A DNA stretch of 64,000 nt from an uncultured bacterium. GTDB taxonomy: Bacteria; Cyanobacteriota; Vampirovibrionia; Gastranaerophilales; Gastranaerophilaceae. Positions 6,041-49,869 of the stretch are shown piece after piece. The stretch's first letter is position 1; every line of letters begins with the position of its first letter. Position numbers and translations under genes: made by a program. The notes under the pieces are model-generated. The model saw only the letters and a list, made by a program, of their open reading frames with translations. It was not told the DNA's origin and made no database searches. The stretch lies in assembly GCA_949292185.1 (NCBI GenBank), contig CASEYP010000002.1:46142-110141 (forward strand), written 5' to 3'.

Positions 6041-6571
6041 ATGAAAAAACTTGCTATAATTTCAAATTTTCAAAATAAAACTACACAAACTATTCTTGAT
6101 TATTTTAAAAATATTCAAGAGATAGAAACTTCAATACATGAAGATTTTACAGATATAAATCATGAAGATTATAATCTTATTGCTTGTTTTTACTTATCAC
6201 CTGAAATAGATTATTCAAAACTTGCTAATGCTAATAATCTATTAAATTTACACCAATCCTTACTACCTGCATTTGAAAGTGAAACTCCAATAATCGATGC
6301 AATAAAATTTGGTTCAAAAGTTACAGGAATAACAATCCATAAACCTGAAAAAGATAATTTTACAGGTAAAATCCTAACTCAATACCCAATATTAATTGGT
6401 TTATCAACACACTATGACACATTATTAAAGGAATTTGAAGATATAGAAACAAAAATTTACCCACTTGTGATAGATGCAATAATAAACGATAAAGTTTTTG
6501 ATTTTACGGATATATTAAAATCTTCTTGCAGTAGAAATTGTGGAAGCTCTTGTAGCGGTCACTGCAAATAG
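6041..6571 (+). CDS. PurN/formyltransferase-like protein, degenerate, with Cys-rich C-terminal tail
   Basis: 176 aa. LLNLHQSLLPAF...KVTGITIH...KIYPLVIDA aligns by eye with E. coli PurN LLNIHPSLLPKY...HGTSVHFV...AIYPLVISW. Ends SSCSRNCGSSCSGHCK. Confidence 0.6.
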   Translation: MKKLAIISNFQNKTTQTILDYFKNIQEIETSIHEDFTDINHEDYNLIACFYLSPEIDYSKLANANNLLNLHQSLLPAFESETPIIDAIKFGSKVTGITIHKPEKDNFTGKILTQYPILIGLSTHYDTLLKEFEDIETKIYPLVIDAIINDKVFDFTDILKSSCSRNCGSSCSGHCK

Positions 6572-27611: not shown

Positions 27612-27642
27612 GCAATTTTTCCGATCAAAAATACTTTATATA
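27612..27642 (+). promoter_or_regulatory. Regulon motif site: GCAATT-N13-ATACTTTATATA
   Basis: Exact match, ending 28 nt upstream of the CHAP gene ATG. Spacer contains ATTTTT-N6-AAAAAT. Confidence 0.6.
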
Positions 27643-27670
27643 AATATAGGGGAAAATAGAACGGGGAAAT

Positions 27671-28627
27671 ATGTATTTAGATTTTTATAATCCGATATCA
27701 TACAACACTGATGTTACAAGTCTCGTATATAACTACAACACAAGAAATATGGGATTATTTGGACAAAACTATTACTTCTTTGGCGGAAGTAATAATAATT
27801 CAATCTGGAATAATACAAATACCTGGTTTAGCGGATTTAACAGCATCTTTAACAATAACATGTTTGGTGGAAACAATATGTTTTTCGGGAATAATATGAC
27901 TTTCGGAAACAATTTCTTCGGCAATAACATGTTCTTCGGAAGTTCAAACCCATTTTCAAATATGAATACAGGTTCAGTTTGGATGTATCCAACCTATCAT
28001 TTTTATGGAACAGGCTCAAAAGGTAAAACTACCAGTTCATCTAGTTCTGCCAGTCCATCAAGTTCTATAAGTTCAACAAGTTCATCAACAAAAACATCCG
28101 AAGCTTCCCAAAAGCAAAAAGTAGAAGAAAAAGAAAAGACTCAAGCAAAAGTTCATAAACAAGAGGCTCACAAAACATCTATAGGAAAATCCTTAGCATA
28201 CGATGCAAGTAAATATCTTGGCTATAATGAAGCCGACGGCTCCTCTAAAAGATTTTCAGATAGCGGAGAATGGTGCGCAGACTTTGTGACTTTTGTTGTA
28301 AATGAAACATACGCTCAAAAAGGTCTAAAACCTCCTGCAGGGTTTGGCAACCACAGAGTTGAAAATCTAAAACAATGGGGCATAACAAACAACAAATATT
28401 TACCTATAGCAGGAAAATCAAATAAAGCGGACATAATCAAAAATCACGTCAAAATTGGTGATATAATGATACTTCGAGAAAACGGAGCATCTCATACCGG
28501 ATTTGTGTCTAAAATAAATGATGACGGATCATTTGAAACAATTGAAGGCAATAGAAATGATAAAGTTGTTAGACACACATACAGTCCAAACGACAATGAA
28601 CTTAGCGGATTTGTTCGAGTAGGGTGA
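27671..28627 (+). CDS. Leaderless CHAP-domain peptidoglycan hydrolase with N-terminal aromatic/Gly/Asn/Met-rich low-complexity region
   Basis: 318 aa. Residues ~27-100 are F/G/N/M-rich (NNMFGG NNMFFG NNMTFG NNFFG NNMFFG). Ser-rich linker at ~121-140. C-terminal CHAP domain (GEWCADFV Cys, ASHTGFV His, IEGN). Confidence 0.8.
   Translation: MYLDFYNPISYNTDVTSLVYNYNTRNMGLFGQNYYFFGGSNNNSIWNNTNTWFSGFNSIFNNNMFGGNNMFFGNNMTFGNNFFGNNMFFGSSNPFSNMNTGSVWMYPTYHFYGTGSKGKTTSSSSSASPSSSISSTSSSTKTSEASQKQKVEEKEKTQAKVHKQEAHKTSIGKSLAYDASKYLGYNEADGSSKRFSDSGEWCADFVTFVVNETYAQKGLKPPAGFGNHRVENLKQWGITNNKYLPIAGKSNKADIIKNHVKIGDIMILRENGASHTGFVSKINDDGSFETIEGNRNDKVVRHTYSPNDNELSGFVRVG
27851..27940 (+). repeat. In-frame degenerate ~18-nt tandem repeats encoding (NNMFFG)x5
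   Basis: aacaataacatgtttggtgga / aacaatatgtttttcggg / aataatatgactttcgga / aacaatttcttcggc / aataacatgttcttcgga. Confidence 0.8.
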
Positions 28628-31853: not shown

Positions 31854-32057
31854 CTAAATATTACCTAAATTATTCATCTGAGTAGCAGTAGTAGCTGCAG
31901 ATGCAGATGCAGGTGAAACAAGACCTTTTGATAACAATTCAGATAAATTAAACTTTTTCTTTTGTTGGTTTACTAAATAAGTTTTTGTACTATCTGCAAA
32001 ATCATTAACTTTATTAACAGCTGCTCCTGTAATTTTTGAAATTGATAATTCGGACAT
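31854..32057 (-). CDS. 67-aa hypothetical protein driven by a regulon motif
   Basis: GGAGGATGAGG RBS upstream. Motif site 35 nt upstream of the ATG. Ala/Ser/Thr-rich C-terminus. Confidence 0.55.
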   Translation of the reverse strand: MSELSISKITGAAVNKVNDFADSTKTYLVNQQKKKFNLSELLSKGLVSPASASAATTATQMNNLGNI

Positions 32058-32092
32058 AACCTCATCCTCCGTAGTTCATAATCGTTCTTATT

Positions 32093-32123
32093 TATATAAA
32101 GTATTTTTTAATGAGAGAATTGC
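32093..32123 (-). promoter_or_regulatory. Regulon motif site: GCAATT-N13-ATACTTTATATA
   Basis: Exact match on the minus strand (plus strand reads TATATAAAGTAT-N13-AATTGC), ending 35 nt upstream of the ATG at 32057. Confidence 0.6.
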
Positions 32124-32294: not shown

Positions 32295-33503
32295 ATGGCA
32301 CGTGAAAAGTATGAACGTACGAAACCGCACGTTAACGTAGGTACAATTGGCCACGTTGACCACGGTAAAACTACATTAACAGCAGCAATTACCGGTACAT
32401 TAGCAGCAGCTGGTAAAGCAGATGCTAAAAAATTCGATGAAATCGATGCTGCTCCAGAAGAAAAAGCAAGAGGTATTACTATCTCTACTGCACACGTAGA
32501 ATACGAAACAGACAAAAGACACTATGCTCACGTTGACTGCCCAGGCCACGCTGACTATGTTAAAAACATGATTACAGGTGCAGCTCAAATGGATGGAGCT
32601 ATCTTGGTAGTTGCAGCAACTGATGGTGCTATGCCTCAAACTCGTGAACACATCTTGTTAGCAAGACAGGTTGGTGTTCCTAACCTAGTTGTATTCTTAA
32701 ACAAATGCGATATGGTTGATGATCCAGAATTATTAGACTTAGTTGAAATGGAAGTTAGAGAAATCCTTTCTCAATACGATTTCGACGGAGATAACATCCC
32801 ATTCATCCGTGGTTCAGCTTTAAAAGCTTTAGAAGCAGTTCAAGCTAATCCAAATATCCAAAGAGGAGAAAATGAATGGACAGATAAAATTTGGGAATTA
32901 ATGGATGCATTAGATACATACTTCCCAGATCCAGTTAGAGACTTAGACAAACCATTCTTGATGCCAATCGAAGACATCTTCTCTATCACTGGTCGTGGTA
33001 CTGTTGCTACAGGCCGTGTAGAACGTGGTATTGTTAAAGTTGGTGATGAAGTTGAATTAGTTGGTATCAAACCTACTAAGAAAACTACAGTTACTGGTGT
33101 TGAAATGTTCAGAAAATCACTTGACCAAGGTCAAGCTGGTGATAACATCGGTGCTTTACTTCGTGGTGTTGATAAAACTGAAGTTGAACGTGGTCAAGTT
33201 TTGGCTAAACCTGGTTCAATTCACCCACACACTAAATTCACAGCTAACGTTTACGTATTAACAAAAGAAGAAGGTGGACGTCACACTCCATTCTTCCCAG
33301 GTTACAGACCTCAATTCTACATCAGAACTACTGACGTAACTGGTACTATCCAATTTGACGGTCAAATGGTAATGCCTGGTGATAACGTTGTTATGACAGT
33401 TGAATTGATTGCCCCTGTTGCTATTGAACAAGGTATGAGATTCGCTATCCGTGAAGGTGGTAGAACTGTTGGTGCTGGTGTTGTTGACTCTATTATCGAA
33501 TAG
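32295..33503 (+). CDS. tuf: Elongation factor Tu
   Basis: 402 aa with [17 protein letters not shown] and NKCD motifs. Contains [16 protein letters not shown], matching the insertion I recall from cyanobacterial/plastid EF-Tu. Confidence 0.97.
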
Positions 33504-33529
33504 TTTTATTAACCATTCAATATAAATAA

Positions 33530-33560
33530 AAAGACTTGATATCAAAGATATCAAGTCTTT
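33530..33560. terminator. Bidirectional terminator shared by tuf (+) and the RHH operon (-)
   Basis: 14-bp perfect stem AAAGACTTGATATC / GATATCAAGTCTTT with loop AAA and A/T runs on both sides. Confidence 0.85.
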
Positions 33561-33637
33561 TTGTTACTTACATTACTTTCATAATCTTTACCGAGAAAAC
33601 TTATTATAAATCCAGAAGACCTCTTACATTTATAAAT

Positions 33638-33814
33638 TTATGCTAATAAAGCTTCTAAAATCTTAGCATTAGTTTGAGCTCTGCGAATATTTAATAAATA
33701 TTTTTCAACATTTGCTCTAATTTCTTGAGCATCGTTATCCAAATATTTCACTTCGCTATCAAGCATTTTCAAATATTCATTTACTGTAATCATTTGATAA
33801 CTTTTGTTATTCAT
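33638..33814 (-). CDS. 58-aa micro-protein, paralogue family member (ITVxEY motif and NAKILEALLA tail)
   Basis: Own translation: MNNKSYQMITVNEYLKMLDSEVKYLDNDAQEIRANVEKYLLNIRRAQTNAKILEALLA. Below the track's length cut-off. Starts 39 nt downstream of the RHH gene, with GGGGAA before the ATG. Confidence 0.7.
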   Translation of the reverse strand: MNNKSYQMITVNEYLKMLDSEVKYLDNDAQEIRANVEKYLLNIRRAQTNAKILEALLA

Positions 33815-33853
33815 TTCCCCAATTCCTTTTTCTAAATTTCCCCTTTTAAAATT

Positions 33854-34042
33854 TTAACCTAACAGAGCTTCTAATATTTCTGCATTTGAAACAGCCTTTT
33901 TACCATTTCTAACTTGTGATCTGTACATATAAGTTCTTAATGCTTCTCTGATCAATTCTGAACGTGTACGATTTTCTGAATCTGCAACTGAATCGATTTC
34001 ATTTAAAAACTTTTCAGGCATTGAAATTAATACTCTTGCCAT
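33854..34042 (-). CDS. Ribbon-helix-helix (CopG/Arc-like) DNA-binding protein with family-specific C-terminal tail
   Basis: 62 aa: MARVLISMPEKFLNEIDSVADSENRTRSELIREALRTYM (strand-helix-helix pattern) followed by the tail ...KKAVSNAEILEALLG. Confidence 0.8.
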   Translation of the reverse strand: MARVLISMPEKFLNEIDSVADSENRTRSELIREALRTYMYRSQVRNGKKAVSNAEILEALLG

Positions 34043-34085
34043 ATTTTTCTCCTTTAATTTTTCCTATTTGTAATCCCCTTACTTA

Positions 34086-34116
34086 TATATAAAGTATTTT
34101 TGTTTGCAAAAATTGC
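34086..34116 (-). promoter_or_regulatory. Regulon motif site: GCAATT-N13-ATACTTTATATA
   Basis: Exact match on the minus strand, ending 43 nt upstream of the RHH ATG (34042). Confidence 0.6.
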
Positions 34117-34209
34117 GCATTTTATAAAGAAAAAGTATATAATCTTAATATAATGTTACAATTCAAAAAGCAAGAGCCACAAGGAATATAAACCCCTAAA
34201 CACACAAAA

Positions 34210-34239
34210 AGGATGTTGAGTATAATACTTCAACATCCT
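34210..34239 (-). terminator. Terminator of the 99-aa gene
   Basis: Stem AGGATGTTGA(G) / (T)TCAACATCCT with an 8-nt loop. On the minus strand it is followed by TTTTTGTGTG. Confidence 0.75.
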
Positions 34240-34264
34240 AAACTGTTTATATTGTGATCTTGAA

Positions 34265-34564
34265 TTAACCTAACATAGATTCAAGAAGATAAGCATTAAT
34301 TCTAGCTTTACGAGATTTGCTTAAAGACAATTCTATTGATTTTTCGATTTCTCTATCTTCAGCAGTTGAATATTTAACTTTGTCTAAAGCTGATGCATAT
34401 TCTTTTACTGTTATAAATTGAGAAGCTTGGGATAATGCACATTGAGCTTTTAAAGATTTAGCATAATCAGATGCTGTAATCATTGTATGTCTTTGAGCAT
34501 TCTCTTTTTTCATTGACTCAACATAGTCATTAACTGTCATTAAATCTGAATAATTATTGTTCAT
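34265..34564 (-). CDS. 99-aa paralogue with a triplicated N-terminal module and the family tail (INAYLLESMLG)
   Basis: Three copies of h-[IM]-T-[VA]-x-[DE]-Y-[VA]-x-[SA]-[ML]-x at residues 8-19, 28-39 and 50-61. Has its own motif promoter and terminator. Confidence 0.7.
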   Translation of the reverse strand: MNNNYSDLMTVNDYVESMKKENAQRHTMITASDYAKSLKAQCALSQASQFITVKEYASALDKVKYSTAEDREIEKSIELSLSKSRKARINAYLLESMLG

Positions 34565-34602
34565 ATATTTCCCCTGTTCTCTTAATATTTTACCCTTACA
34601 TA

Positions 34603-34633
34603 TATATAAAGTATTTTTCTATTTAAAAATTGC
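34603..34633 (-). promoter_or_regulatory. Regulon motif site: GCAATT-N13-ATACTTTATATA
   Basis: Exact match on the minus strand, ending 38 nt upstream of the ATG at 34564. Confidence 0.6.
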
Positions 34634-34695
34634 CTATTTTTTATATAAATTTTACATATTTTAACATTTAAATACAAGTTCTTAACAAATCGAAA

Positions 34696-34718
34696 GGGGC
34701 AGGCGTTAAACCTGTCCC
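34696..34718 (-). terminator. Weak terminator hairpin after 56-aa gene copy 1
   Basis: GGGGCAGG / CCTGTCCC arms (one mismatch when read on the minus strand), followed by CTTTCGATT as at copy 2. Confidence 0.45.
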
Positions 34719-34749
34719 TTAAACTTGTATCTTAATAGAATCCTATTTA

Positions 34750-34920
34750 TTAAGCTAATAAAGCTTCAACGATTTTGGCATTTGTTTTTGCTCTTTGAAC
34801 ACTTAATAAATATTTTTCAACACTTGCTTCAATTTCTTTTTCTTCGATTGATAAACATTTTACATTATCTAAGCTATCAACATAATCTTTAACTGTTATC
34901 ATTTCATAATCATTTCTCAT
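34750..34920 (-). CDS. 56-aa micro-protein, copy 1
   Basis: Own translation: MRNDYEMITVKDYVDSLDNVKCLSIEEKEIEASVEKYLLSVQRAKTNAKIVEALLA. AAGGGGAAAAG RBS. Protein identical to copy 2, with only synonymous DNA differences. Confidence 0.8.
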   Translation of the reverse strand: MRNDYEMITVKDYVDSLDNVKCLSIEEKEIEASVEKYLLSVQRAKTNAKIVEALLA

Positions 34921-34965
34921 AATCTTTTCCCCTTATATTTTTTTTATTCTCTTATCCCTTACATA

Positions 34966-34996
34966 TATATAAAGTATTTTTCTATTTAAAAATTGC
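34966..34996 (-). promoter_or_regulatory. Regulon motif site: GCAATT-N13-ATACTTTATATA
   Basis: Exact match on the minus strand, ending 45 nt upstream of the ATG at 34920. Confidence 0.6.
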
Positions 34997-35068
34997 CTAT
35001 TTTGTAGTTATTTTGTATATAATTTTTACATATTTTAATACCTATAAAATCACTAATCATAATCGAAA

Positions 35069-35099
35069 GGGCAGAATTAAATTTAATTTAATTCTGCCC
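35069..35099 (-). terminator. Terminator after 56-aa gene copy 2
   Basis: 13-bp perfect stem GGGCAGAATTAAA / TTTAATTCTGCCC with a 5-nt loop, followed on the minus strand by TTTCGATT. Confidence 0.7.
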
Positions 35100-35131
35100 T
35101 TATAAACTTTTTATAGATTATATTTTATTTA

Positions 35132-35302
35132 TTAAGCTAATAAAGCTTCAACGATTTTAGCATTTGTTTTTGCTCTTTGTACACTTAATAAATATTTTTC
35201 AACGCTTGCTTCAATCTCTTTTTCTTCAATTGATAAACATTTTACATTATCTAAGCTATCAACATAATCTTTAACTGTTATCATTTCATAATCATTTCTC
35301 AT
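35132..35302 (-). CDS. 56-aa micro-protein, copy 2
   Basis: Same 56-aa protein as copy 1. Five nucleotide differences, all at third codon positions and all synonymous. Confidence 0.8.
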   Translation of the reverse strand: MRNDYEMITVKDYVDSLDNVKCLSIEEKEIEASVEKYLLSVQRAKTNAKIVEALLA

Positions 35303-35348
35303 AATCTTTTCCCCTTATTTTTCTCTTTATTTTCTTATCCCTTACACA

Positions 35349-35379
35349 TATATAAAGTATTTTTCTATTTAAAAATTGA
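35349..35379 (-). promoter_or_regulatory. Regulon motif site, variant TCAATT-N13-ATACTTTATATA
   Basis: One mismatch (T for G) in the distal hexamer. Ends 46 nt upstream of the ATG at 35302. Confidence 0.55.
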
Positions 35380-35559: not shown

Positions 35560-36657
35560 ATGCTTAGAACAGGGATTGTAGGATTACCAAATGTAGGGAA
35601 GTCAACATTATTCAATGCACTTACAAGTGCTAGAAATGCACAAAGTGCAAACTATCCATTTTGTACAATAGAGCCGAATATTGGAGTTGTTGATGTTCCT
35701 GATGAGAGATTACCAATACTTGCAAAATTATGTAAAACAGACACAATAATACCAACAGCAATAGAATTTGTTGATATTGCAGGATTAGTAAAAGGCGCAA
35801 GCAAAGGAGAAGGTTTAGGAAACCAATTTTTACAAAACATCAGAGAAGTTGATGCAATCATACAAGTTGTAAGATGTTTTGATGATGAAAACACAATACA
35901 CGTAGCTGGTAAAGTTGATCCGCTTAGCGATATCGAAACAATAAACACTGAATTAGCACTTGCAGATATGGCTTCAATAGAACGAAGACAAGCAAGAATT
36001 GCAAAAACAGTCAAAGGCGGAGATAAAGAAGCTGTATTGGAAGATAAAGTTCTCAATAAATTAACAGAATTGTTATCTGATTGTACATTTATTGATATAA
36101 CAAAACATTTTGATGAAGATGAACTTCCAATAGTAAAAAGATTGAATTTATTATCTGCTAAGCCTGTAATTTACTGCGCAAATGTTTCTGAATTTGATTT
36201 GAAAAACGGAAACGATTACACTAAAAAAGTTGAAGAATATGCAAAAGCACACGGTGCTGAAATGGTTATAATTACTGCAAAAATAGAAGAAGAACTTGCA
36301 GATTTAGGGCATGAAGAAGCTCAAGAATATCTAAAAGAATTAGGAATTGAAGATAGCGGTATAAACAGAATGATAAAATCTGTTTATAACTTGCTAAAAC
36401 TAAGAACCTTCATTACTGCCGGAGAAAAAGAAGTTCGAGCTTGGACAATTCCTGCAGGAACAAAAGCACCTCAAGCTGCCGGTGTAATTCATACAGATTT
36501 TGAAAAAGGCTTTATTAGAGCTGAAATAACACCTTACAAGGACTTTGTTGAACTTGGTTCATATAATGCTTGCAAGGAAAAAGGTGTAACAAGACTTGAA
36601 GGTAAAGATTATGTAATCCAAGATGGAGATCTTGTTCACTTTAGATTTGCGGTATAA
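35560..36657 (+). CDS. ychF: Ribosome-binding ATPase YchF
   Basis: 365 aa. GIVGLPNVGKST, DIAGLV and a C-terminal TGS-like domain. Confidence 0.93.
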   Translation: MLRTGIVGLPNVGKSTLFNALTSARNAQSANYPFCTIEPNIGVVDVPDERLPILAKLCKTDTIIPTAIEFVDIAGLVKGASKGEGLGNQFLQNIREVDAIIQVVRCFDDENTIHVAGKVDPLSDIETINTELALADMASIERRQARIAKTVKGGDKEAVLEDKVLNKLTELLSDCTFIDITKHFDEDELPIVKRLNLLSAKPVIYCANVSEFDLKNGNDYTKKVEEYAKAHGAEMVIITAKIEEELADLGHEEAQEYLKELGIEDSGINRMIKSVYNLLKLRTFITAGEKEVRAWTIPAGTKAPQAAGVIHTDFEKGFIRAEITPYKDFVELGSYNACKEKGVTRLEGKDYVIQDGDLVHFRFAV

Positions 36658-36710: not shown

Positions 36711-39700
36711 TTATTTAACTAATACTAAATTTTTACCACATTCATCTGTTTTATTTTCATAAGCCTTACAAATCGTTCTGGAATTAGGCTTAACATCATA
36801 TCTGCCGGTAAATGTTAATGGTGTATCTTTCGGAACAGAATAAAGGATTAATGTCGTATCATTTAGAGGAATTGAACCATCACCTGATCCTCGCTTGATG
36901 AAATATTTACCATCAATCTCATTGACATAATATTTATCATTCTCATCCTTTGCATTCACAAATTCAGTACCAGGTTTCAAGCCAGGGATACCAACTCCGC
37001 CTTCACCATCAATATAAACCGTTTTCTCGCCACCATTGCCGGTGCGTTGAACATCAAAGTTCAATTTTATAGAATCTAAAACAATATTATCTTGTTTATA
37101 TTCACGTCTGTGATCAGTATGAAGAGCTGAAGTATTAAATAATGAAATTGCCATTCTACCGTCAGGGCTCTGTCTAAAGATAGCAGGAACTTTAACATGT
37201 TCTTTTGAATCTTGTAACGGTAAAGTATAAACTGCACCATTATTCAAAGCATTACATTTTGGATTTCTACGAACTGCCATAACTTCATCAAAATATTTCT
37301 TATATTTTGCAATAAATGGTTTATATTTAGTTGCGTCAGTGAAATCCAACCATTCATCATGAACTCTTTGACGACCTTGTAAGAACATATTCTTAGTTTT
37401 TGTATCATAACCAGTTGCACCTACATCGTCGCCATCAAATAAAGTTGGCATACCTGGTAATGCTACAACATATTTCATCATACCTAAGACTTTTGATAAT
37501 GCAGGCTTCATAACAGCTTCAAACACGTCATTTTCATAATCTGCATCAGCTCCAGGTGGTAATTGGAAACCATATTGACTTCTAGCTTGTTTTAACACCA
37601 TTGATATTGTTACATCAATAGGTTTTACACCAAACGCATCCGGATCAAATCGTTTGCCCATAAATTTACCTTGAGCTAAATCAGAAATAGCTTTACTTAT
37701 TGGTATGAAAGCTTTATTAAACTGTTCATCAGAACCCAATTCATTTCTATATTTATCTCTATAATTATTTAAGACATCAATAAATGCAGGTCTTAAAGCA
37801 TCTGCCATAGCAATAGCTTTTGGTGATACTGCAGAGAAATCATAATTATCAACTTCTGCATCTGAAATTGGTTCTAAGAATTTATCTTTAATAATTTGGT
37901 AAGCCTTACGTCTATTTTCACGACCTTCTACATAGTTCAAATCACAGTAGAATAATGACATATCCAAAGCTGCACAATGCAATGCTCTAGGTTTATCATG
38001 GTTACCTATAAATGTATAAGCATACATTACAGAATCCAAGCCTCCGGATCTGATAAACGGATTATTTCCACCTACCATTTTTTCAAATATTACTTTTTGA
38101 AGATAATTACTATCTGTAAAATATGTACCATCTTCAAAATCTTTTGCAAACATATTTGAAATTAATCTAAACCAATGAGTATAATTTGCAGTTGAAGACA
38201 TGCCTGTTTCTCTTTGGAATTTAGAAACAATGTCATTGAACTTGTTAGGGAATTTTCTAGAAGCACTTCCATAGCCTCTTTCGTGCAAATTGATTTCATC
38301 AGTAATTTCTGCAACCGTATAAGCATTTGGATTAATCTTAATAACGCCCTGAGTAAATTTATTCCAGAAATTAATAACTTGTTGCCAAGTATATTCAAAG
38401 TTTGTATTTGTGTTACGTAAAGCTTCAACATCAGCAATATCTTTTGCAGCGTCAATTCTCCAATCTAAACCTGATTGTGCTTTATCAATAATTAAATCTG
38501 CTAATTGGAAACTTGCGAGATTTGTATCTTTTAAGGTTCTGACCATAGATTCAACAATTTCACTATCTATAGATGAATCCAAATTCTTCATTCCTTTACG
38601 TAAACGATGTAACAACATCTGAGCTTCATCTTTAGGTGATGCAGGATTTAGAATACCTATACCTTGTAATGATAATTGCTTTAATTCTTTATAATCGTAT
38701 GATAATTCACCACTTGAAGAATTTATTGCAACAGTAACATTCGGATCTAATGATTTTATAACTGCATATTTAGCAATCATCGGCAACAATATTGGTAACG
38801 CGTATTTACCAAATTCAGTAACTTCATCACCATCAAATAATTTCTTATCATCCGGTAATACAGAATCAACTTGATCCAATACTGTAGTTGCAAAATTAGA
38901 CATTTCCTGAGTATAGATTTTATCCATCTGCTCATATGTATCTTTATACTCTGCAGGAAGATGTTTATTACCTTCTTTATAGATTTGATATCTTGGAACA
39001 GCAATATCAGAAGGAACTACCGCTCTTTTTGAAATCAATGGAGATGCTAATACTGAAACAATGTTGTCCCCTAATTCAAAAGAATCCAATGGAGTATTCA
39101 TCAAACCTTCTAAGATTTGAGATTTCTTGTCTTCATTTGATAATACTCTTTTATTATTATAAAAACCTTCTAATACATTTTCCACTTCAGTTTTTGAAAC
39201 TTCTGCCTTCAATGATTTAGGGAAAATCTTATTATTAGACATATCTACGATTTGACTATAAACTTTAGACGGATTATTTACATCCACGTTTCTTAAAGTT
39301 TGTGCTACATACAATCTTAAAATATCATCAGTCTTAGCTGTCCAATATTGTCCTGAAGATATAGCATAATCTTGAACTTGCATATTACCGCGAATAATTT
39401 TCTTCATTTCGCGTTTTCTCTCATCTACAGGCAAGTTAATTAAAGACTTTGTATCAGCATTTGAAAATACAAAATTCAATTTTGCAATATCAGGGTTAGC
39501 ATCCCAAGTTTCAAAACCACTTTCGTATTTACCATCGACTACAAAGTTTCTGAATTTAGATAAGAATCTTGAACCCATTGGACCATTCATTGTAATTGGT
39601 CTATCCGGATTCATATCATTATATTTATTTAAGTTTTTAATATTATCATTATAAGTTTCAGGATTTATTTCAAATGCGTATGGGAACACTGAATCATTAT

Positions 39701-40871
39701 GAGAATGTAAATCATATACATTTGGAGTACTCATCTTTGAATAAGTTTTTATCAAAGATTTATTATCATTTCTTTCTTCTTCAGTAACTAAACGTGTATC
39801 AAAGAATTGAATGTATGTTGGTTTTTTAGGATCATAAGCTCTATTTTTCTTAATTGAAATATGCCCAATTCTATTTTGAGAATATGAATAAGGTGAGTTT
39901 ACTATTTTATGTGAAATATAATCTTTATTCTTTACAAAAACGCCCAAAGATAAAGGATTATTCTTTATCCCTGATGCTCTAAACCAATTTATATATGGAG
40001 AATCATCACCCCATTTTAAAATATGTTTAAAGTGAACACCTTCCAAACCTTCATTGACAAAAGCACCATCTGAAACAAAATTCAAACCATGCGCAAACAT
40101 TTTTCTCTGTAAAGAAGCATAATTATTTATATTACCAAGAGAACTTGCCATCTGCATACAGTTTTTATTCCAATAAGCATGGGCTGTAAAATCATCATCT
40201 GTAAATATTGGTAATGAAATTATTCTGCTATAACCATCATAATCGCCTTTATCTACAGCATATTCTAAACCTGCCAAAGTGCCACCAAACTTATTAGCTA
40301 CAGTTTTAATACCCTTTTCGCCTCTTTCAGCAAGTTTTTCATCTCTAACAATCATGTTTTGGTCATTATATACATACCCTACCTTTTGGGAATCTATAAT
40401 AACCAATTTCATGGCTCCACCTTTAGATAAGTTAGATTTTGTAGGTACAACTATATTAAATATATTTCTATTTTCATTAGCGCTTGAACGTTCATCTATA
40501 ATTTCACCGGCATCAACTCTGGTCTTTGTATAACCGGTCTTTTTATCAACTAAAAGGAAATGATATGCAAAAGCTTGATTATCGTCAAAACCATACTTTC
40601 TTGCCAAATCAACTTTATTTACACCAGGTTTTAACTCAATATTGTCTTTACCGTCACGAGAATAGGCTTTACCTGTAGAAAAATAATTGCCATATCTATC
40701 TTGATCTAATTTATAGATTTCAAGATAACATCTATCTTTATTCTCGTCATACGGATAAGAAAATTCAAATTCTCTAAAACCTTGATCTGATTTATCAAAC
40801 TTATACCCTTGAAATGCAACTGAATTATTATTTTCAGCCTTATTCTTCTTTAAATCAAAATTTACTTTCAC
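36711..40871 (-). CDS. Giant GH13 (alpha-amylase family)-like protein, no signal peptide
   Basis: 1386 aa. GH13 landmarks by eye: GGTLAGLEY...SLPIFT...HAYW; region I NFVSDGAFVNEG (aa 264-275); region II LDWRIDAAKD (802-811); region III TVAEITDE (852-859); region IV FIGNHDKPR (954-962). Confidence 0.7.
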   Translation of the reverse strand: MKVNFDLKKNKAENNNSVAFQGYKFDKSDQGFREFEFSYPYDENKDRCYLEIYKLDQDRYGNYFSTGKAYSRDGKDNIELKPGVNKVDLARKYGFDDNQAFAYHFLLVDKKTGYTKTRVDAGEIIDERSSANENRNIFNIVVPTKSNLSKGGAMKLVIIDSQKVGYVYNDQNMIVRDEKLAERGEKGIKTVANKFGGTLAGLEYAVDKGDYDGYSRIISLPIFTDDDFTAHAYWNKNCMQMASSLGNINNYASLQRKMFAHGLNFVSDGAFVNEGLEGVHFKHILKWGDDSPYINWFRASGIKNNPLSLGVFVKNKDYISHKIVNSPYSYSQNRIGHISIKKNRAYDPKKPTYIQFFDTRLVTEEERNDNKSLIKTYSKMSTPNVYDLHSHNDSVFPYAFEINPETYNDNIKNLNKYNDMNPDRPITMNGPMGSRFLSKFRNFVVDGKYESGFETWDANPDIAKLNFVFSNADTKSLINLPVDERKREMKKIIRGNMQVQDYAISSGQYWTAKTDDILRLYVAQTLRNVDVNNPSKVYSQIVDMSNNKIFPKSLKAEVSKTEVENVLEGFYNNKRVLSNEDKKSQILEGLMNTPLDSFELGDNIVSVLASPLISKRAVVPSDIAVPRYQIYKEGNKHLPAEYKDTYEQMDKIYTQEMSNFATTVLDQVDSVLPDDKKLFDGDEVTEFGKYALPILLPMIAKYAVIKSLDPNVTVAINSSSGELSYDYKELKQLSLQGIGILNPASPKDEAQMLLHRLRKGMKNLDSSIDSEIVESMVRTLKDTNLASFQLADLIIDKAQSGLDWRIDAAKDIADVEALRNTNTNFEYTWQQVINFWNKFTQGVIKINPNAYTVAEITDEINLHERGYGSASRKFPNKFNDIVSKFQRETGMSSTANYTHWFRLISNMFAKDFEDGTYFTDSNYLQKVIFEKMVGGNNPFIRSGGLDSVMYAYTFIGNHDKPRALHCAALDMSLFYCDLNYVEGRENRRKAYQIIKDKFLEPISDAEVDNYDFSAVSPKAIAMADALRPAFIDVLNNYRDKYRNELGSDEQFNKAFIPISKAISDLAQGKFMGKRFDPDAFGVKPIDVTISMVLKQARSQYGFQLPPGADADYENDVFEAVMKPALSKVLGMMKYVVALPGMPTLFDGDDVGATGYDTKTKNMFLQGRQRVHDEWLDFTDATKYKPFIAKYKKYFDEVMAVRRNPKCNALNNGAVYTLPLQDSKEHVKVPAIFRQSPDGRMAISLFNTSALHTDHRREYKQDNIVLDSIKLNFDVQRTGNGGEKTVYIDGEGGVGIPGLKPGTEFVNAKDENDKYYVNEIDGKYFIKRGSGDGSIPLNDTTLILYSVPKDTPLTFTGRYDVKPNSRTICKAYENKTDECGKNLVLVK

Positions 40872-48564: not shown

Positions 48565-48595
48565 GCAATTATTTACAAGATATATACTTTATATA
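48565..48595 (+). promoter_or_regulatory. Regulon motif site: GCAATT-N13-ATACTTTATATA
   Basis: Exact match, ending 29 nt upstream of the ATG at 48625. Confidence 0.6.
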
Positions 48596-48624: not shown

Positions 48625-49869
48625 ATGGGTATCTACGGAGCAGGCAAAGCCTTCAACTATGAATTTATACGAAGAGGACAGGTTTCAAGAAATCCAAAAA
48701 TCATCCAAAAACAACCCGCAAATGTAGTTTTTGGAGGACACTCAGTAACAAAGACCACAAATATAACTGTAAATAATGGTCCAACAGGTTTTTGGGGCTT
48801 TTTGGGTGGATTTATGAATAGCCTATTCGGCGGTGGATTAAGCTTTGGTGGATTCAATAGCTTTAGCAATTTTGGTATGGGTATGGGCATGGGTATGCCA
48901 ATGATGGCAAGTCCATTCGGAATGCTAAACCAAACACAAATGAATTCAAAAACACCAAAATCCGGAGATAGACTAAACGATTTAAAAACATTATATCCTG
49001 ATTGGAATATCGTATCAGATGGAAATGGCAATTATGATGCAACATCAAAAGATGGTACAGTGCATCACAAAGGCAATTTTGAACAAATGTGCGAATTATT
49101 AAAGAAAAGCTCTGAAGCAAAAGATCCACAAGGAAAAGATTCTGGAGCAAAAGTAGATGATGATGGTAAAGACTCAGGATCAGGTGCCGGCTCAGCTTCA
49201 GGTGCCGGCTCAGCTTCAGGTGCTGGCTCAGGCTCAGGTTCCGGTTCAGGATCCGGCTCTGGTTGGGATGCTGCAACTGCAAATGATTTAAAAGGATTTA
49301 CTGGAAATATCTCTGTTAATGACTTTGCTTCTGGTGGAGGCGCATCAATAAATGGAGCTACTGTATTATCAAAACCTGGTGAAAACACTCAAGGATTCCC
49401 TGCAAAAATAGCTGTCAAAGGATATCAATATGTATTTCAATCTGTAGACTCAGATGGTAAAGCAATTTACAAATCTATGAACGGTAAAGGCGACACATAT
49501 AAACTTGAAAAACAAGGTGATAGCTTCGGATTAAATCAACACGAAGGAGACAGTCTATCAGGTGTTGGAAGCATCGATATTGGAGGTGCAAGTTCAGCTG
49601 GTTCCGCAAGTAAAGCAAACAAAAGTTCTAAAACTCCAAATTCTAAACCGGTAAATGATAATAAAGAGATAAAAAGAAATAATGACGGATCCGTAACAGT
49701 AACAATAGGCGTTCCGTACAAAAATACAGGAACAGTAACTTTAAAACCATCAGAAATTAAAGGACTGAATGATGAACAAATAAAAGAATTGGCAGAAGAA
49801 AAAATAAAAGAACAAAAAACTCCAAAATTACAAGTTCCTAAATTTTCTAATTTTTCAAACATACAATAA
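48625..49869 (+). CDS. Leaderless protein: F/G/M-rich low-complexity N-terminus, (GAGSAS)/(GS) linker, unknown C-terminal domains
   Basis: 414 aa. Residues ~53-101 read GFWGFLGGFMNSLFGGGLSFGGFNSFSNFGMGMGMGMPMMASPFGM. Residues ~184-213 are a Gly/Ser/Ala linker. AAGAGGA RBS. Confidence 0.75.
   Translation: MGIYGAGKAFNYEFIRRGQVSRNPKIIQKQPANVVFGGHSVTKTTNITVNNGPTGFWGFLGGFMNSLFGGGLSFGGFNSFSNFGMGMGMGMPMMASPFGMLNQTQMNSKTPKSGDRLNDLKTLYPDWNIVSDGNGNYDATSKDGTVHHKGNFEQMCELLKKSSEAKDPQGKDSGAKVDDDGKDSGSGAGSASGAGSASGAGSGSGSGSGSGSGWDAATANDLKGFTGNISVNDFASGGGASINGATVLSKPGENTQGFPAKIAVKGYQYVFQSVDSDGKAIYKSMNGKGDTYKLEKQGDSFGLNQHEGDSLSGVGSIDIGGASSAGSASKANKSSKTPNSKPVNDNKEIKRNNDGSVTVTIGVPYKNTGTVTLKPSEIKGLNDEQIKELAEEKIKEQKTPKLQVPKFSNFSNIQ
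49183..49263 (+). repeat. 18-bp in-frame tandem repeat (GC-rich) encoding the GAGSAS/GSGS linker
   Basis: GGTGCCGGCTCAGCTTCA occurs twice perfectly (49183-49218), then GGTGCTGGCTCAGGCTCA and GS-coding degenerate copies. Confidence 0.85.

Follow-up and report, generated by a model that had tools for sequence, protein, structure and literature searches.

Small tail-sharing paralogues of a conserved RHH transcription factor in Gastranaerophilales: candidate modulating partners

Introduction

Control of a transcription factor comparable to that considered here is known from SinI/SinR, from the eukaryotic Id proteins and from LITTLE ZIPPER. In the case of the Id/HLH proteins and the plant microProteins, paralogues keep the dimerisation part of a factor and titrate that factor into inactive heteromers. 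We know of no RHH-based example of microprotein control, and literature searches for an RHH example of a dominant-negative paralogue found none. The locus described here lies in a window of 64,000 nucleotides (the whole stretch of DNA that was analysed) from an uncultured bacterium of the Gastranaerophilales, and encodes a 62-aa RHH protein together with small proteins that share its C-terminal tail. As in the Id/HLH and plant microProtein systems, DNA-contact residues are lost from the small proteins, here R3 and the basic helix-2 N-cap, but those systems are eukaryotic and built on bHLH, HD-ZIP and similar folds.

In a second comparable system, that of SinR/SinI (and SlrR/SlrA) in Bacillus subtilis, SinI is encoded beside the repressor SinR and has an oligomerisation surface in common with it; SinI heterodimerizes with SinR through residues that are conserved between the two proteins and abolishes DNA binding by SinR (PMC3163267). 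The locus resembles SinR/SinI in having a C-terminal helical element common to a regulator and several small paralogues, helix 2 also being shared here, and in that feedback wiring via a common promoter is plausible. The small proteins also appear, as judged by sequence only, to be without DNA-binding determinants, like SinI. The differences are that the fold is RHH rather than HTH_3 plus a SinI domain, for neither of which was a Pfam match found among the five proteins; that the small proteins keep a degenerate full-length DNA-binding fold, not the oligomerisation element alone; that one small gene shares a transcript with the regulator gene; and that the partnership is here a putative one.

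The C-terminal tails of the MazE/EndoAI antitoxins bind their partner. An N-terminal RHH followed by a short C-terminal segment is the arrangement of MazE/EndoAI (PDB 4ME7), ParD, RelB and CcdA as well as of the present protein. Unlike those antitoxins, the present RHH has no toxin gene beside it, is conserved vertically throughout the order and is mostly monocistronic, and its tail is unrelated in sequence. Mnt, AmrZ and NikR also join an RHH to a C-terminal element, by which dimers of dimers are made and on which cooperative binding to the operator depends; AmrZ is not functional without its tetramerization domain, which is C-terminal (PMC10146422). Binding of that kind is fitted by the tandem 10-bp-spaced repeats found here; however, the tail has only ∼11 residues, and the known systems are without tail-sharing small paralogues. 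The archaeal regulators CdrS and CdrL are encoded together. They and aCcr1 are cell-cycle regulators which resemble the present protein in being very small conserved RHH proteins, CdrS being highly conserved with ∼60 aa (PMC8406309). They belong to another domain of life and are without a common tail or degenerate paralogues, and the NCBIfam matches of the RHH protein are weak and far below the family cut-offs (aCcr1, 30 bits against 60; CdrS, 15.5 bits against 100).

Results

Layout of the locus

Five minus-strand genes had been proposed between tuf and ychF, and open reading frames were found for all five (Table 1). A Shine-Dalgarno sequence is present for each gene and a terminator for each transcription unit. 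The neighbours of the cluster are housekeeping genes, and the matching loci which are identical or nearly so come from Gastranaerophilales (Melainabacteria) MAGs. The duplication of the 56-aa gene is polymorphic among strains, with one or two copies in the near-identical contigs L001-L006, and copies A and B in the window differ at five codons, all five of the differences being synonymous.

Table 1. Features of the RHH cluster and its flanks, numbered from the first nucleotide of the window.
Feature	Coordinates	Strand	Basis
Flanking tuf	32295-33503	plus	Pfam identity
Terminator hairpin common to RHH/58-aa operon and convergent tuf	33525..33565		Inverted repeat I3, terminator scan, RNA fold
58-aa tail-bearing small protein	33638..33814	minus	ORF; own GGGGAA Shine-Dalgarno sequence; 39-nt gap from RHH
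RHH transcription factor, 62 aa	33854..34042	minus	ORF and Pfam RHH_1
Core promoter motif, RHH/58-aa operon, GCAATTTTT-N14-TTTATATA	34086..34116	minus	Exact pattern match
Candidate operator, tandem TAACA-N5-TTAAG, 10-bp period, 42-43 nt upstream of core motif	34144..34158	minus	Sequence
Terminator hairpin and U-tract after 99-aa gene	34206..34238	minus	RNA fold
99-aa small protein, tail NAYLLESMLG	34265..34564	minus	ORF
Core promoter motif, 99-aa gene	34603..34633	minus	Pattern match
Terminator hairpin after 56-aa copy B	34690..34720	minus	RNA fold
56-aa small protein copy B, tail TNAKIVEALLA	34750..34920	minus	ORF
Core promoter motif, 56-aa copy B	34966..34996	minus	Pattern match
Terminator hairpin after 56-aa copy A	35058..35101	minus	Inverted repeat I4, 17/17 complementary; RNA fold
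56-aa small protein copy A, same protein as copy B	35132..35302	minus	ORF
Core promoter motif, 56-aa copy A, TCAATTTTT variant	35349..35379	minus	Pattern match
Flanking ychF	35560-36657	plus	Pfam identity

The 58-aa gene had been taken to be co-transcribed with the RHH gene, in agreement with the short spacing between them and with RNA folding, which placed no hairpin there. In the window the 58-aa gene is in frame with the RHH stop codon, 13 codons away. Stop-codon read-through from RHH into the 58-aa gene was rejected, the in-frame spacing not being conserved (39 nt in the window, 43 nt in L007, 30 nt in L008 and 46 nt in L017).

The RHH protein

The 62-aa protein had been recognised as an RHH protein, and this was confirmed by a match to PF01402 RHH_1 over residues 3-39, which scored 32 bits where the gathering score is 20.5. 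Profile searches of the PDB gave EndoAI, NikR and CopG as relatives, the closest being 4ME7_E (EndoAI/MazE, E=4.7e-8). The predicted fold consists of a strand (3-8), two helices (10-21 and 27-42), a basic linker and a tail helix, SNAEILEALLG. These profile matches mark the 62-aa protein as a true transcription factor of the RHH type. Its homologues form 2345 clusters. There were 186 relatives found, and in 80 loci from Gastranaerophilales species the length is constant and the identity is 63-95%. The gene is monocistronic in most of these 80 loci, tuf adjoins it in only 16 of them, and no conserved neighbour that might be a partner of the tail was found among them.

The small proteins

The small ORFs had been expected to be conserved. 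Around 90 homologue clusters of constant length were found for each family (86 for the 56-aa protein and 90 for the 58-aa protein), and dN/dS was 0.08-0.15 for the 58-aa gene, 0.08-0.38 for the 56- and 58-aa genes together and 0.34-0.85 for the 99-aa gene. As judged by these results, the small genes encode real proteins under purifying selection. Among 1.84 billion proteins, only 88 representatives of the family were found. The small proteins had also been thought to lie outside any described family, and searches of Pfam, NCBIfam, PHROG, PADLOC and the PDB gave no family match for them. The PHROG, PADLOC and Rfam searches of the small proteins and the region returned nothing meaningful, the small-protein profile gave only chance matches to PDB sequences (E of at least 0.25), and Foldseek found no match in the PDB for the model of the 56-aa protein. 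Taken with the alignments described below, the small proteins appear to be a small, clade-restricted and undescribed family derived from RHH by duplication.

In the original prediction the small proteins were homologous to RHH outside the tail. Using hhalign, the 56-aa family with its tail included matched RHH 11-62 with E=3.7e-5, and the tail-bearing family after removal of the tail gave a weak match (P=0.009). The homology of the body to RHH rests on the tail-less and intermediate forms. Tail-less orthologues matched RHH helix 2 (ENRTRSELIREALRTYM vs ENKKRSELVAKSLVKYL) with P=5e-6 and a probability of 86%, the tail-bearing and tail-less small proteins matched each other over residues 3-42 (P=3e-4), and one member, of 73 aa (L013/P0347), has both the tail and a full RHH-like core. 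The small proteins were aligned to RHH along their whole length by MAFFT, and 8 of 10 RHH core positions are kept hydrophobic in the 56-aa family in the hhalign alignment. These comparisons agree with the prediction and point to the small proteins as diverged paralogues of RHH. The 58-, 56- and 99-aa proteins gave no match to the RHH profiles in Pfam or NCBIfam.

As had been noted, the small proteins are without the Arg of the RHH strand, R3 being aligned with D, E or N. At the start of helix 2 the basic N-cap RTRSE has become EEKE, and the net charge of the body is -5 for the 56-aa protein against +2 for RHH. Given that the strand position and the helix-2 N-cap are both acidic, the small proteins should not bind DNA via the RHH ribbon and should be without DNA-binding determinants. 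The hydrophobic core of helix 1 and helix 2 is retained in them and the strand/helix-1 unit is degenerate. In the 73-aa form the N-terminal unit precedes a full RHH strand, which suggests that this unit of the small proteins may be an added module rather than a degenerate RHH strand. In the 99-aa protein the unit, [LMF][MI]T[VA]x[DE]Y..., occurs three times and is followed by a single helix 2 and the tail; its homologues have 95-128 aa, with two or three matched stretches.

An AF2 monomer of the 56-aa protein (pLDDT 80.5, pTM 0.43) was predicted as coil (1-9), helix (10-18) and helix (25-55), a coil-helix-helix order without a strand. The 99-aa monomer was predicted as helices only, with low confidence (pLDDT 70, pTM 0.29), and neither model contained a beta-strand or a compact fold.

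The C-terminal tail

All five proteins end in N-A-x-[IL]-[LV]-E-x-[LM]-L-[GA], as had been described. A search of the 64-kb window in six frames with the pattern [ILVM][ILVM]E[ASTGK][LMI][LIV][GAST]-stop matched these five ORFs only, and at the DNA level the tails make up a single five-copy repeat family, 73-76% identical to the RHH copy. Throughout the order the C-terminus of RHH is a short amphipathic helix, N-A-x-[IL]-L-[DE]-x-L-L-[GD], which follows a basic linker. In the 56-aa family no segment is more conserved than the tail. Conservation of RHH together with its tail extends over the Gastranaerophilales (80 loci), mostly without a neighbouring small partner, and therefore the tail has a function of its own.

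The tail had also been compared to the degron of ssrA. Such a degron is unlikely and the case for it weak, given that the final residue is variable (G/D/S/E/Q/A) and that extensions (LLDG, LLEE, LLAYV) are tolerated; a tmRNA for comparison of the tag was absent from the 64-kb window. The last residue of the tail showed no covariation between RHH and partner, small proteins ending in LLD adjoining RHHs ending in LLG.

A co-transcribed small ORF lies downstream of RHH in 21 of the 80 loci, which form one subclade. In most of the order RHH has no adjacent small partner. The co-transcribed partner carries the tail in 7 of the 21 loci and is without it in 14. As read from this distribution, the ancestral small partner is one co-transcribed with RHH, the tail having been lost in most species and the RHH-like body kept, so that not only the tail but also the body is of importance.

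Promoter and candidate operator

The motif (K)CAATTWTW-N14-TTTATATA was found six times in the 64-kb window against none expected from shuffles, and four of the six sites precede the four transcription units of the RHH cluster. Motif matches and RNA folding upheld the claim that each transcription unit has a motif promoter and a terminator hairpin, there being four promoters for the five genes. Upstream of RHH the core motif is conserved across the order, with the spacing fixed in 51 of 64 loci, and a dispersed 56-aa gene of another species is preceded by the same motif. The regulon includes low-complexity proteins, unknown small proteins and a CHAP cell-wall hydrolase, and its tripartite promoter is unusual.

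The motif had been regarded as a regulon motif to which RHH binds. It is indeed common to all units and to a large regulon, and its geometry is that of a promoter. Its spacing is fixed and -35/-10-like and it precedes dozens of unrelated genes; the motif is more likely to be a core promoter than an RHH operator. It would also be a poor RHH operator because it is single-copy and asymmetric. A standard sigma-70 promoter was rejected too, the -35 sequence GCAATT being unlike TTGACA despite the -35/-10 geometry. A tandem repeat, TTAAS-N5-TTAAS, was found (with at most one mismatch) upstream of 25% of motif sites compared with 1% of controls. Its position peaks at 32-33 and 43 nt upstream of the motif, in helical phase, and the repeats are direct and not palindromic. 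The tandem TTAAS repeat is a better candidate for the RHH operator than the core motif. A conserved RNA structure in the 5'-UTR was rejected, the sequence of the spacer not being conserved and the inverted repeat of the window being absent elsewhere.

Discussion

The reading that we favour, although we put it at a little under an even chance, is that the small proteins are non-DNA-binding partners which modulate RHH in the manner of SinI/SinR or Id/bHLH. They would assemble with RHH via the RHH-like body to give mixed dimers, via the tail to give mixed higher-order oligomers, or via both. Assembly would alter, and most likely weaken, the cooperative binding of RHH dimers to the 10-bp-spaced TTAAS repeats upstream of the regulon promoters, including those of the small proteins themselves. 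The small proteins have the same tripartite promoter as RHH, and the outcome would be feedback switching as in SinI/SinR or Id/bHLH. We infer the interaction, the sign of its effect and the identity of the operator. From the original repressor/anti-repressor prediction, the homology, the loss of basic residues, the purifying selection, the common promoter and the lack of a described family all stand; the tying of the tail to the small partners needs revision, the tail being present on RHH order-wide.

If the small proteins assemble with RHH, the locus would provide bacteria with a clear example of degenerate RHH-fold paralogues ('microproteins') that control a transcription factor. It would then also give a handle on regulation in the Gastranaerophilales, a gut lineage that is uncultured and in which hardly any regulators have been characterised: a universal regulator with its probable operator, and an unusual promoter with its large regulon, the proteins of which are unknown. 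An extended version, that the order-wide RHH is the master regulator of the large, uncharacterised regulon in these non-photosynthetic cyanobacteria, that in one lineage the products of the regulon itself include RHH-derived microproteins which titrate it via the LxxLL-like tail, as a bacterial counterpart on the RHH fold of the eukaryotic microProtein/Id switches, and that the copy number of these decoys sets the threshold of the switch, seems to us improbable as a whole.

Several observations count against the small proteins being partners of RHH. The 58-aa gene shares the RHH mRNA, yet a pure antagonist is not expected on the mRNA of its target. Tail-less forms predominate among the co-transcribed partners (14/21), and the tails of RHH and the small proteins do not covary. 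The AF2 monomers are strandless and the tail-free match to RHH is weak (P=0.009). Finally, the core motif resembles the sigma-type promoter of many unrelated genes.

A third protein found order-wide might instead recognise the tail, as a docking peptide or as a degron, the small proteins then being competitive decoys and not RHH binders, which we consider rather unlikely. RNA polymerase, a sigma factor of the regulon, a co-regulator, or a protease or adaptor would be candidates for the third protein, and were it a protease the small proteins would stabilise RHH. The tail of RHH is conserved order-wide where a small partner does not adjoin it, and on this argument the primary partner of the tail cannot be a small protein, but self-association of RHH via the tail would account just as well for its conservation in the whole order. 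Within the 56-aa family the tail is under the strongest constraint, and its LxxLL-like amphipathic sequence after an S/T-N helix cap is typical of docking helices, although the variable last residue and the extensions argue against recognition of a free LAA-type C-terminus. RHH is closest to the RHH antitoxins (4ME7_E), with their partner-binding C-terminal tails, yet no candidate for a partner gene conserved beside RHH was found, and the conserved tail-less orthologues of the partner are left unexplained by a decoy that acts through the tail only.

Of slightly lower probability, and unlikely in our estimation, is a role of the small proteins as obligate subunits rather than antagonists. The functional form would then be an asymmetric heterodimer of RHH with the 58-aa protein, or the small proteins would bridge DNA-bound RHH dimers. 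Bridging would increase or re-target binding, as by a co-repressor, a co-activator or a specificity switch, and the 56- and 99-aa proteins would be alternative subunits. The direct, non-palindromic TTAAS repeats suit asymmetric units, and the triple N-terminal unit of the 99-aa protein suggests multivalent bridging. The tail-less partners retain an RSEL helix-2 N-cap, a contact to the DNA backbone in RHH proteins, whereas in the lineage of the window both DNA-contact elements are acidic. Co-transcription of RHH with the 58-aa gene, a pairing kept in 21 loci, would be natural for subunits, but in most of the order RHH functions without an adjacent small partner, and the strain-variable copy number of the 56-aa gene would be tolerated more easily if its product were a modulator than if it were a stoichiometric subunit.

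A toxin-antitoxin-like pair, degenerate or novel, made up of RHH and the 58-aa protein, with the other small genes as orphan copies, is very improbable: the MazE-type antitoxin EndoAI is the best solved relative of RHH, and the order of the genes (RHH first, small gene second) and the C-terminal tail of RHH mimic type II modules, but the downstream protein, itself a paralogue of RHH, matched no family of toxins or defence proteins (PHROG, PADLOC), the RHH is highly conserved order-wide and monocistronic in most genomes, the neighbours are housekeeping genes, the promoter is common to a large chromosomal regulon, and neither an adjacent toxin gene nor a patchy mobile distribution was seen among the 80 loci. 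Conserved genes of ∼55 aa such as these are called by gene finders, yet they are left unnamed.

Gene organisation of the array

The five minus-strand ORFs between tuf and ychF were found exactly where the original prediction had placed them and are listed in the table below with the other features discussed here. The organism belongs to the Gastranaerophilales (Melainabacteria/Vampirovibrionia), in line with the original guess. The five genes are organised into four transcription units. As had been proposed, the 58-aa gene is co-transcribed with the gene for the 62-aa ribbon-helix-helix (RHH) protein, the 39-nt gap between them being free of hairpins, while the 99-aa gene and each 56-aa gene have a separate promoter motif and a separate terminator made of a hairpin and a U-tract. 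A further hairpin with a 19-bp stem (33525-33565) lies between the convergent tuf gene and RHH/58-aa operon. Since a T-run lies downstream on the operon strand and the arm on the other side is A-rich, this hairpin probably terminates transcription in both directions. Adjoining ychF is a minus-strand ORF of 1386 aa (36711-40871) for which the public gene tables of identical contigs record no Pfam family.

Table. Positions of genes, promoter motif sites and leaders; positions are those of the window except where a relative locus (L number) is named
Feature	Position	Strand	Remark
tuf	32295-33503	+	flanks the array
58-aa ORF	33638-33814	-	array gene
RHH, 62 aa	33854-34042	-	array gene; Pfam RHH_1
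99-aa ORF	34265-34564	-	array gene
56-aa ORF, copy B	34750-34920	-	array gene
56-aa ORF, copy A	35132-35302	-	array gene
ychF	35560-36657	+	flanks the array
Motif site	27612-27642	+	precedes CHAP-domain hydrolase ORF 27671-28627
Motif site	48565-48595	+	precedes 414-aa ORF 48625-49869
Weaker motif site	32092-32122	-	precedes 67-aa ORF 31854-32057
Leaders surveyed	33815-33853, 34043-34085, 34565-34602, 34921-34965, 35303-35348, 27643-27670		GTAAGGG, GGGGAA-type Shine-Dalgarno
Second RHH paralogue type	L073 2441-2629	-	about 1.5 kb from the main RHH of L073
Second RHH paralogue type	L084 6001-6189		full-length, with tail

The RHH protein and its tail

The 62-aa protein scored 32 bits against Pfam RHH_1 (gathering score 20.5), in agreement with its original assignment, and by this profile match it is a bona fide RHH protein and, by fold, an ordinary member of the superfamily. 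Among solved structures its nearest relative is EndoAI, a MazE-type antitoxin of B. subtilis (4ME7_E, E=4.7e-8), with NikR and CopG next. All five proteins of the array end in N-A-x-[IL]-[LV]-E-x-[LM]-L-[GA]. A six-frame scan of the 64-kb window with a loose form of this pattern returned these five ORFs only, and the DNA encoding the tail is a single repeat family with five copies.

Homologues of the RHH protein fall into 2345 clusters, the best 120 of which are all at least 81% identical. A scan of one genome per species gave 186 relatives. The best 80 of these 186 show 63-95% identity, and most have 62 residues; nearly all are labelled Gastranaerophilales, Melainabacteria or Vampirovibrio, with generic or stray MAG labels on the remaining few, and every one of the 80 carries the tail. 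The tail reads NAE[IL]L[DE]xLLG in the clade of the window and mostly KNAxILEALLD elsewhere. The dN/dS against orthologues was 0.04-0.18. The gene neighbourhood is not conserved, tuf adjoining RHH in just 16 of the 80 loci, and no candidate for a partner gene travelling with RHH was found among them. Because of its tail the RHH is, as judged from these relatives, a distinctive order-specific orthologue group. Some genomes also contain a second full-length, tail-bearing RHH paralogue type (MAKVLLSIPDKFLNQID...DAELLENLLD).

Relationship of the small proteins to the RHH

The small ORFs are conserved: the 56-aa and 58-aa proteins have 86 and 90 homologue clusters, respectively, nearly all of the same length and none with a name or a Pfam domain, and their dN/dS values against orthologues were 0.22-0.38 and 0.08-0.15. 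The value for the 99-aa gene was 0.34-0.85. Copies A and B of the 56-aa gene differ at five codons, all synonymously. These signatures indicate that all three types are real genes. The 56-aa gene is present as two tandem copies in the window and in L001 and L004 but as one in L002, L003, L005 and L006, all six being contigs otherwise near-identical to the window. This is a strain-level polymorphism in copy number and thus the tandem duplication is recent and polymorphic.

A HMMER profile built from the 56-aa and 58-aa families was used for a full scan of 1.84 billion representative proteins and found just 88 representatives, all of 31-128 aa. Some are single units of 50-60 aa; in the others, which have 95-128 aa, the N-terminal unit is present two or three times. 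The small proteins had no match in Pfam, NCBIfam, PHROGs, PADLOC or the PDB, and so, as suspected originally, they constitute an undescribed family.

Profile-profile comparison aligned RHH residues 11-62 with residues 12-56 of the 56-aa family (E=3.7e-5); once the tails were removed, the signal was weak (P=0.009). In sister species, the ORF directly 3' of RHH is a tail-less orthologue (MENTEYIMSSLDEYFEILDKENKKRSELVAKSLVKYL...) whose helix 2 matches ENRTRSELIREALRTYM of the RHH (P=5e-6) and which matches the tail-bearing family over residues 3-42 (P=3e-4). A 73-aa downstream protein of the family (at 6221-6442 of relative locus L013; also P0347) possesses, besides the N-terminal unit, both the tail and a complete RHH-like core (VVLALPAKAINELQTVKYSKNRSELVSKTLKKYL). 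In evolutionary terms it looks intermediate between the small proteins and the RHH. The full-length alignment previously made by eye was reproduced by MAFFT, which spontaneously places the small proteins along the whole RHH. Taken as sequence comparisons, these results indicate that the small proteins are related to the neighbouring RHH beyond the tail. In the alignments, eight of ten RHH core positions are still hydrophobic in the small proteins. The strand arginine (R3), originally noted as missing, aligns with D or E, the basic helix-2 N-cap RTRSE with EEKE, and the net charge is -5 for the 56-aa body versus +2 for the RHH.

AF2 modelled the 56-aa protein (pLDDT 80.5) as a coil (1-9), a helix (10-18) and a long helix (25-55) running into the tail, and the 99-aa protein as helical with low confidence. 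The element order of the 56-aa model is that expected of an RHH monomer with a partner-dependent strand, which is not proof of such a fold. Since in the 73-aa form a complete RHH strand comes after the N-terminal unit, this unit may be an added, repeatable module rather than a degenerate RHH strand.

Distribution of the small proteins

The small proteins have a much narrower distribution than the RHH. A small co-oriented ORF was found directly 3' of RHH in 21 of the 80 loci, all in one subclade, seven with the tail and 14 without. The 99-aa type is present in three relative loci (L007, L008 and L017) and the 56-aa type adjoins RHH in the window and L007 only. One other species has its 56-aa gene away from RHH, at a dispersed site, with the same promoter retained. 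Given that the tailed RHH is order-wide, we conclude from this pattern that the tail is ancient with a function independent of small proteins encoded beside RHH, that the RHH-like partner on the RHH transcript arose later and has a body of importance in its own right, even where the tail is absent, and that the tail-sharing array in the window is a lineage-specific expansion.

Promoter motif and candidate operator

The shared tripartite motif is GCAATTTTT-N14-TTTATATA. Its spacing, fixed in 51 of 64 RHH loci, corresponds to GCAATT-N17-TTTATA, a -35/-10 geometry. The window contains six sites where none is expected; four stand in front of the transcription units of the array and the other two before the genes of a CHAP-domain hydrolase and a 414-aa protein. 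The CHAP-domain hydrolase has an N/G/F-rich low-complexity N-terminus, and the 414-aa protein had no Pfam match. An exact-pattern metagenome scan gave at least 120 stretches, and a downstream ORF could be assigned for 55 of these among the matches listed. The 55 include RHH (4), small proteins of the RHH-derived family (2), the MRFNNSQDP family (6) and many low-complexity N/G/Y/M-rich or unknown proteins. The scan indicates that the motif drives a large Gastranaerophilales regulon whose products are unknown and often of low complexity. Given the -35/-10 geometry and the many unrelated downstream genes, the motif is best read as the core promoter of this regulon and is probably the site for a dedicated sigma factor or activator. 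It had been taken as the target of the RHH but it is a poor candidate for an operator because it is single-copy and asymmetric.

A tandem repeat, TTAAS-N5-TTAAS, with a 10-bp period is enriched upstream of GCAATTTTT, being counted at no more than one mismatch in 25% of sites versus 1% of controls. It peaks at 32-33 and 43 nt upstream of the core motif, one helical turn apart, and looks like a helically phased transcription-factor site common to the whole regulon. Repeats of this kind lie ahead of motif sites both in L007-L208 and in the window, for example at 34144-34158. The palindromic TTAA and the spacing of one helical turn together make the classical layout for adjacent RHH dimers, and on this basis the repeats are proposed as a candidate RHH operator.

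Possible roles of the small proteins

In the best-supported model, which we tentatively infer at slightly less than an even chance, the small proteins derive from the RHH and join it as partner subunits that do not themselves bind DNA. Contact would be made by the RHH-like body, by the common tail, or by body and tail together, and assembly would modulate, most likely weaken, cooperative binding of the RHH at regulon promoters. These would include the promoters of RHH itself and of the small-protein genes, giving a feedback switch. The interaction and the antagonism are both inferred. No covariation of terminal residues was found between RHH tails and partner tails.

It is rather unlikely that the tail docks a third, order-wide partner, with the small proteins serving as decoys for it. 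We likewise consider it doubtful that the small proteins are obligate subunits, or bridging ones, and so strengthen or re-target binding; the shared transcript of RHH and the 58-aa gene favours this reading. A toxin-antitoxin-like pair of RHH and the 58-aa gene is highly improbable, given that the downstream gene is an RHH paralogue without a toxin family match and that RHH is vertically conserved.

One precedent is the Id family, whose members neutralise bHLH factors. Others are SinI, which neutralises SinR by way of residues that the two proteins have in common (PMC3163267), and RHH regulators such as AmrZ, which require a C-terminal tetramerisation element (PMC10146422). The antagonistic partner-subunit arrangement proposed here would share with SinI/SinR and Id/bHLH the control of a regulator by a degenerate paralogue, and looks like a variant of it on the RHH fold. 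The system in the window has an RHH fold and several paralogues, including a triple-repeat form, all on one unusual promoter. A literature search found no such RHH/degenerate-paralogue system. The anatomy and evolution of the array are clean and amenable to in vitro testing.

Leaders of regulon genes

The leaders of the regulon genes have a conserved GTAAGGG just after the -10-like box and a Shine-Dalgarno sequence of GGGGAA type, versus AAGGAG for tuf and similar housekeeping neighbours. Many leaders have two or three GGG/GGA blocks, and these may indicate shared translational control.
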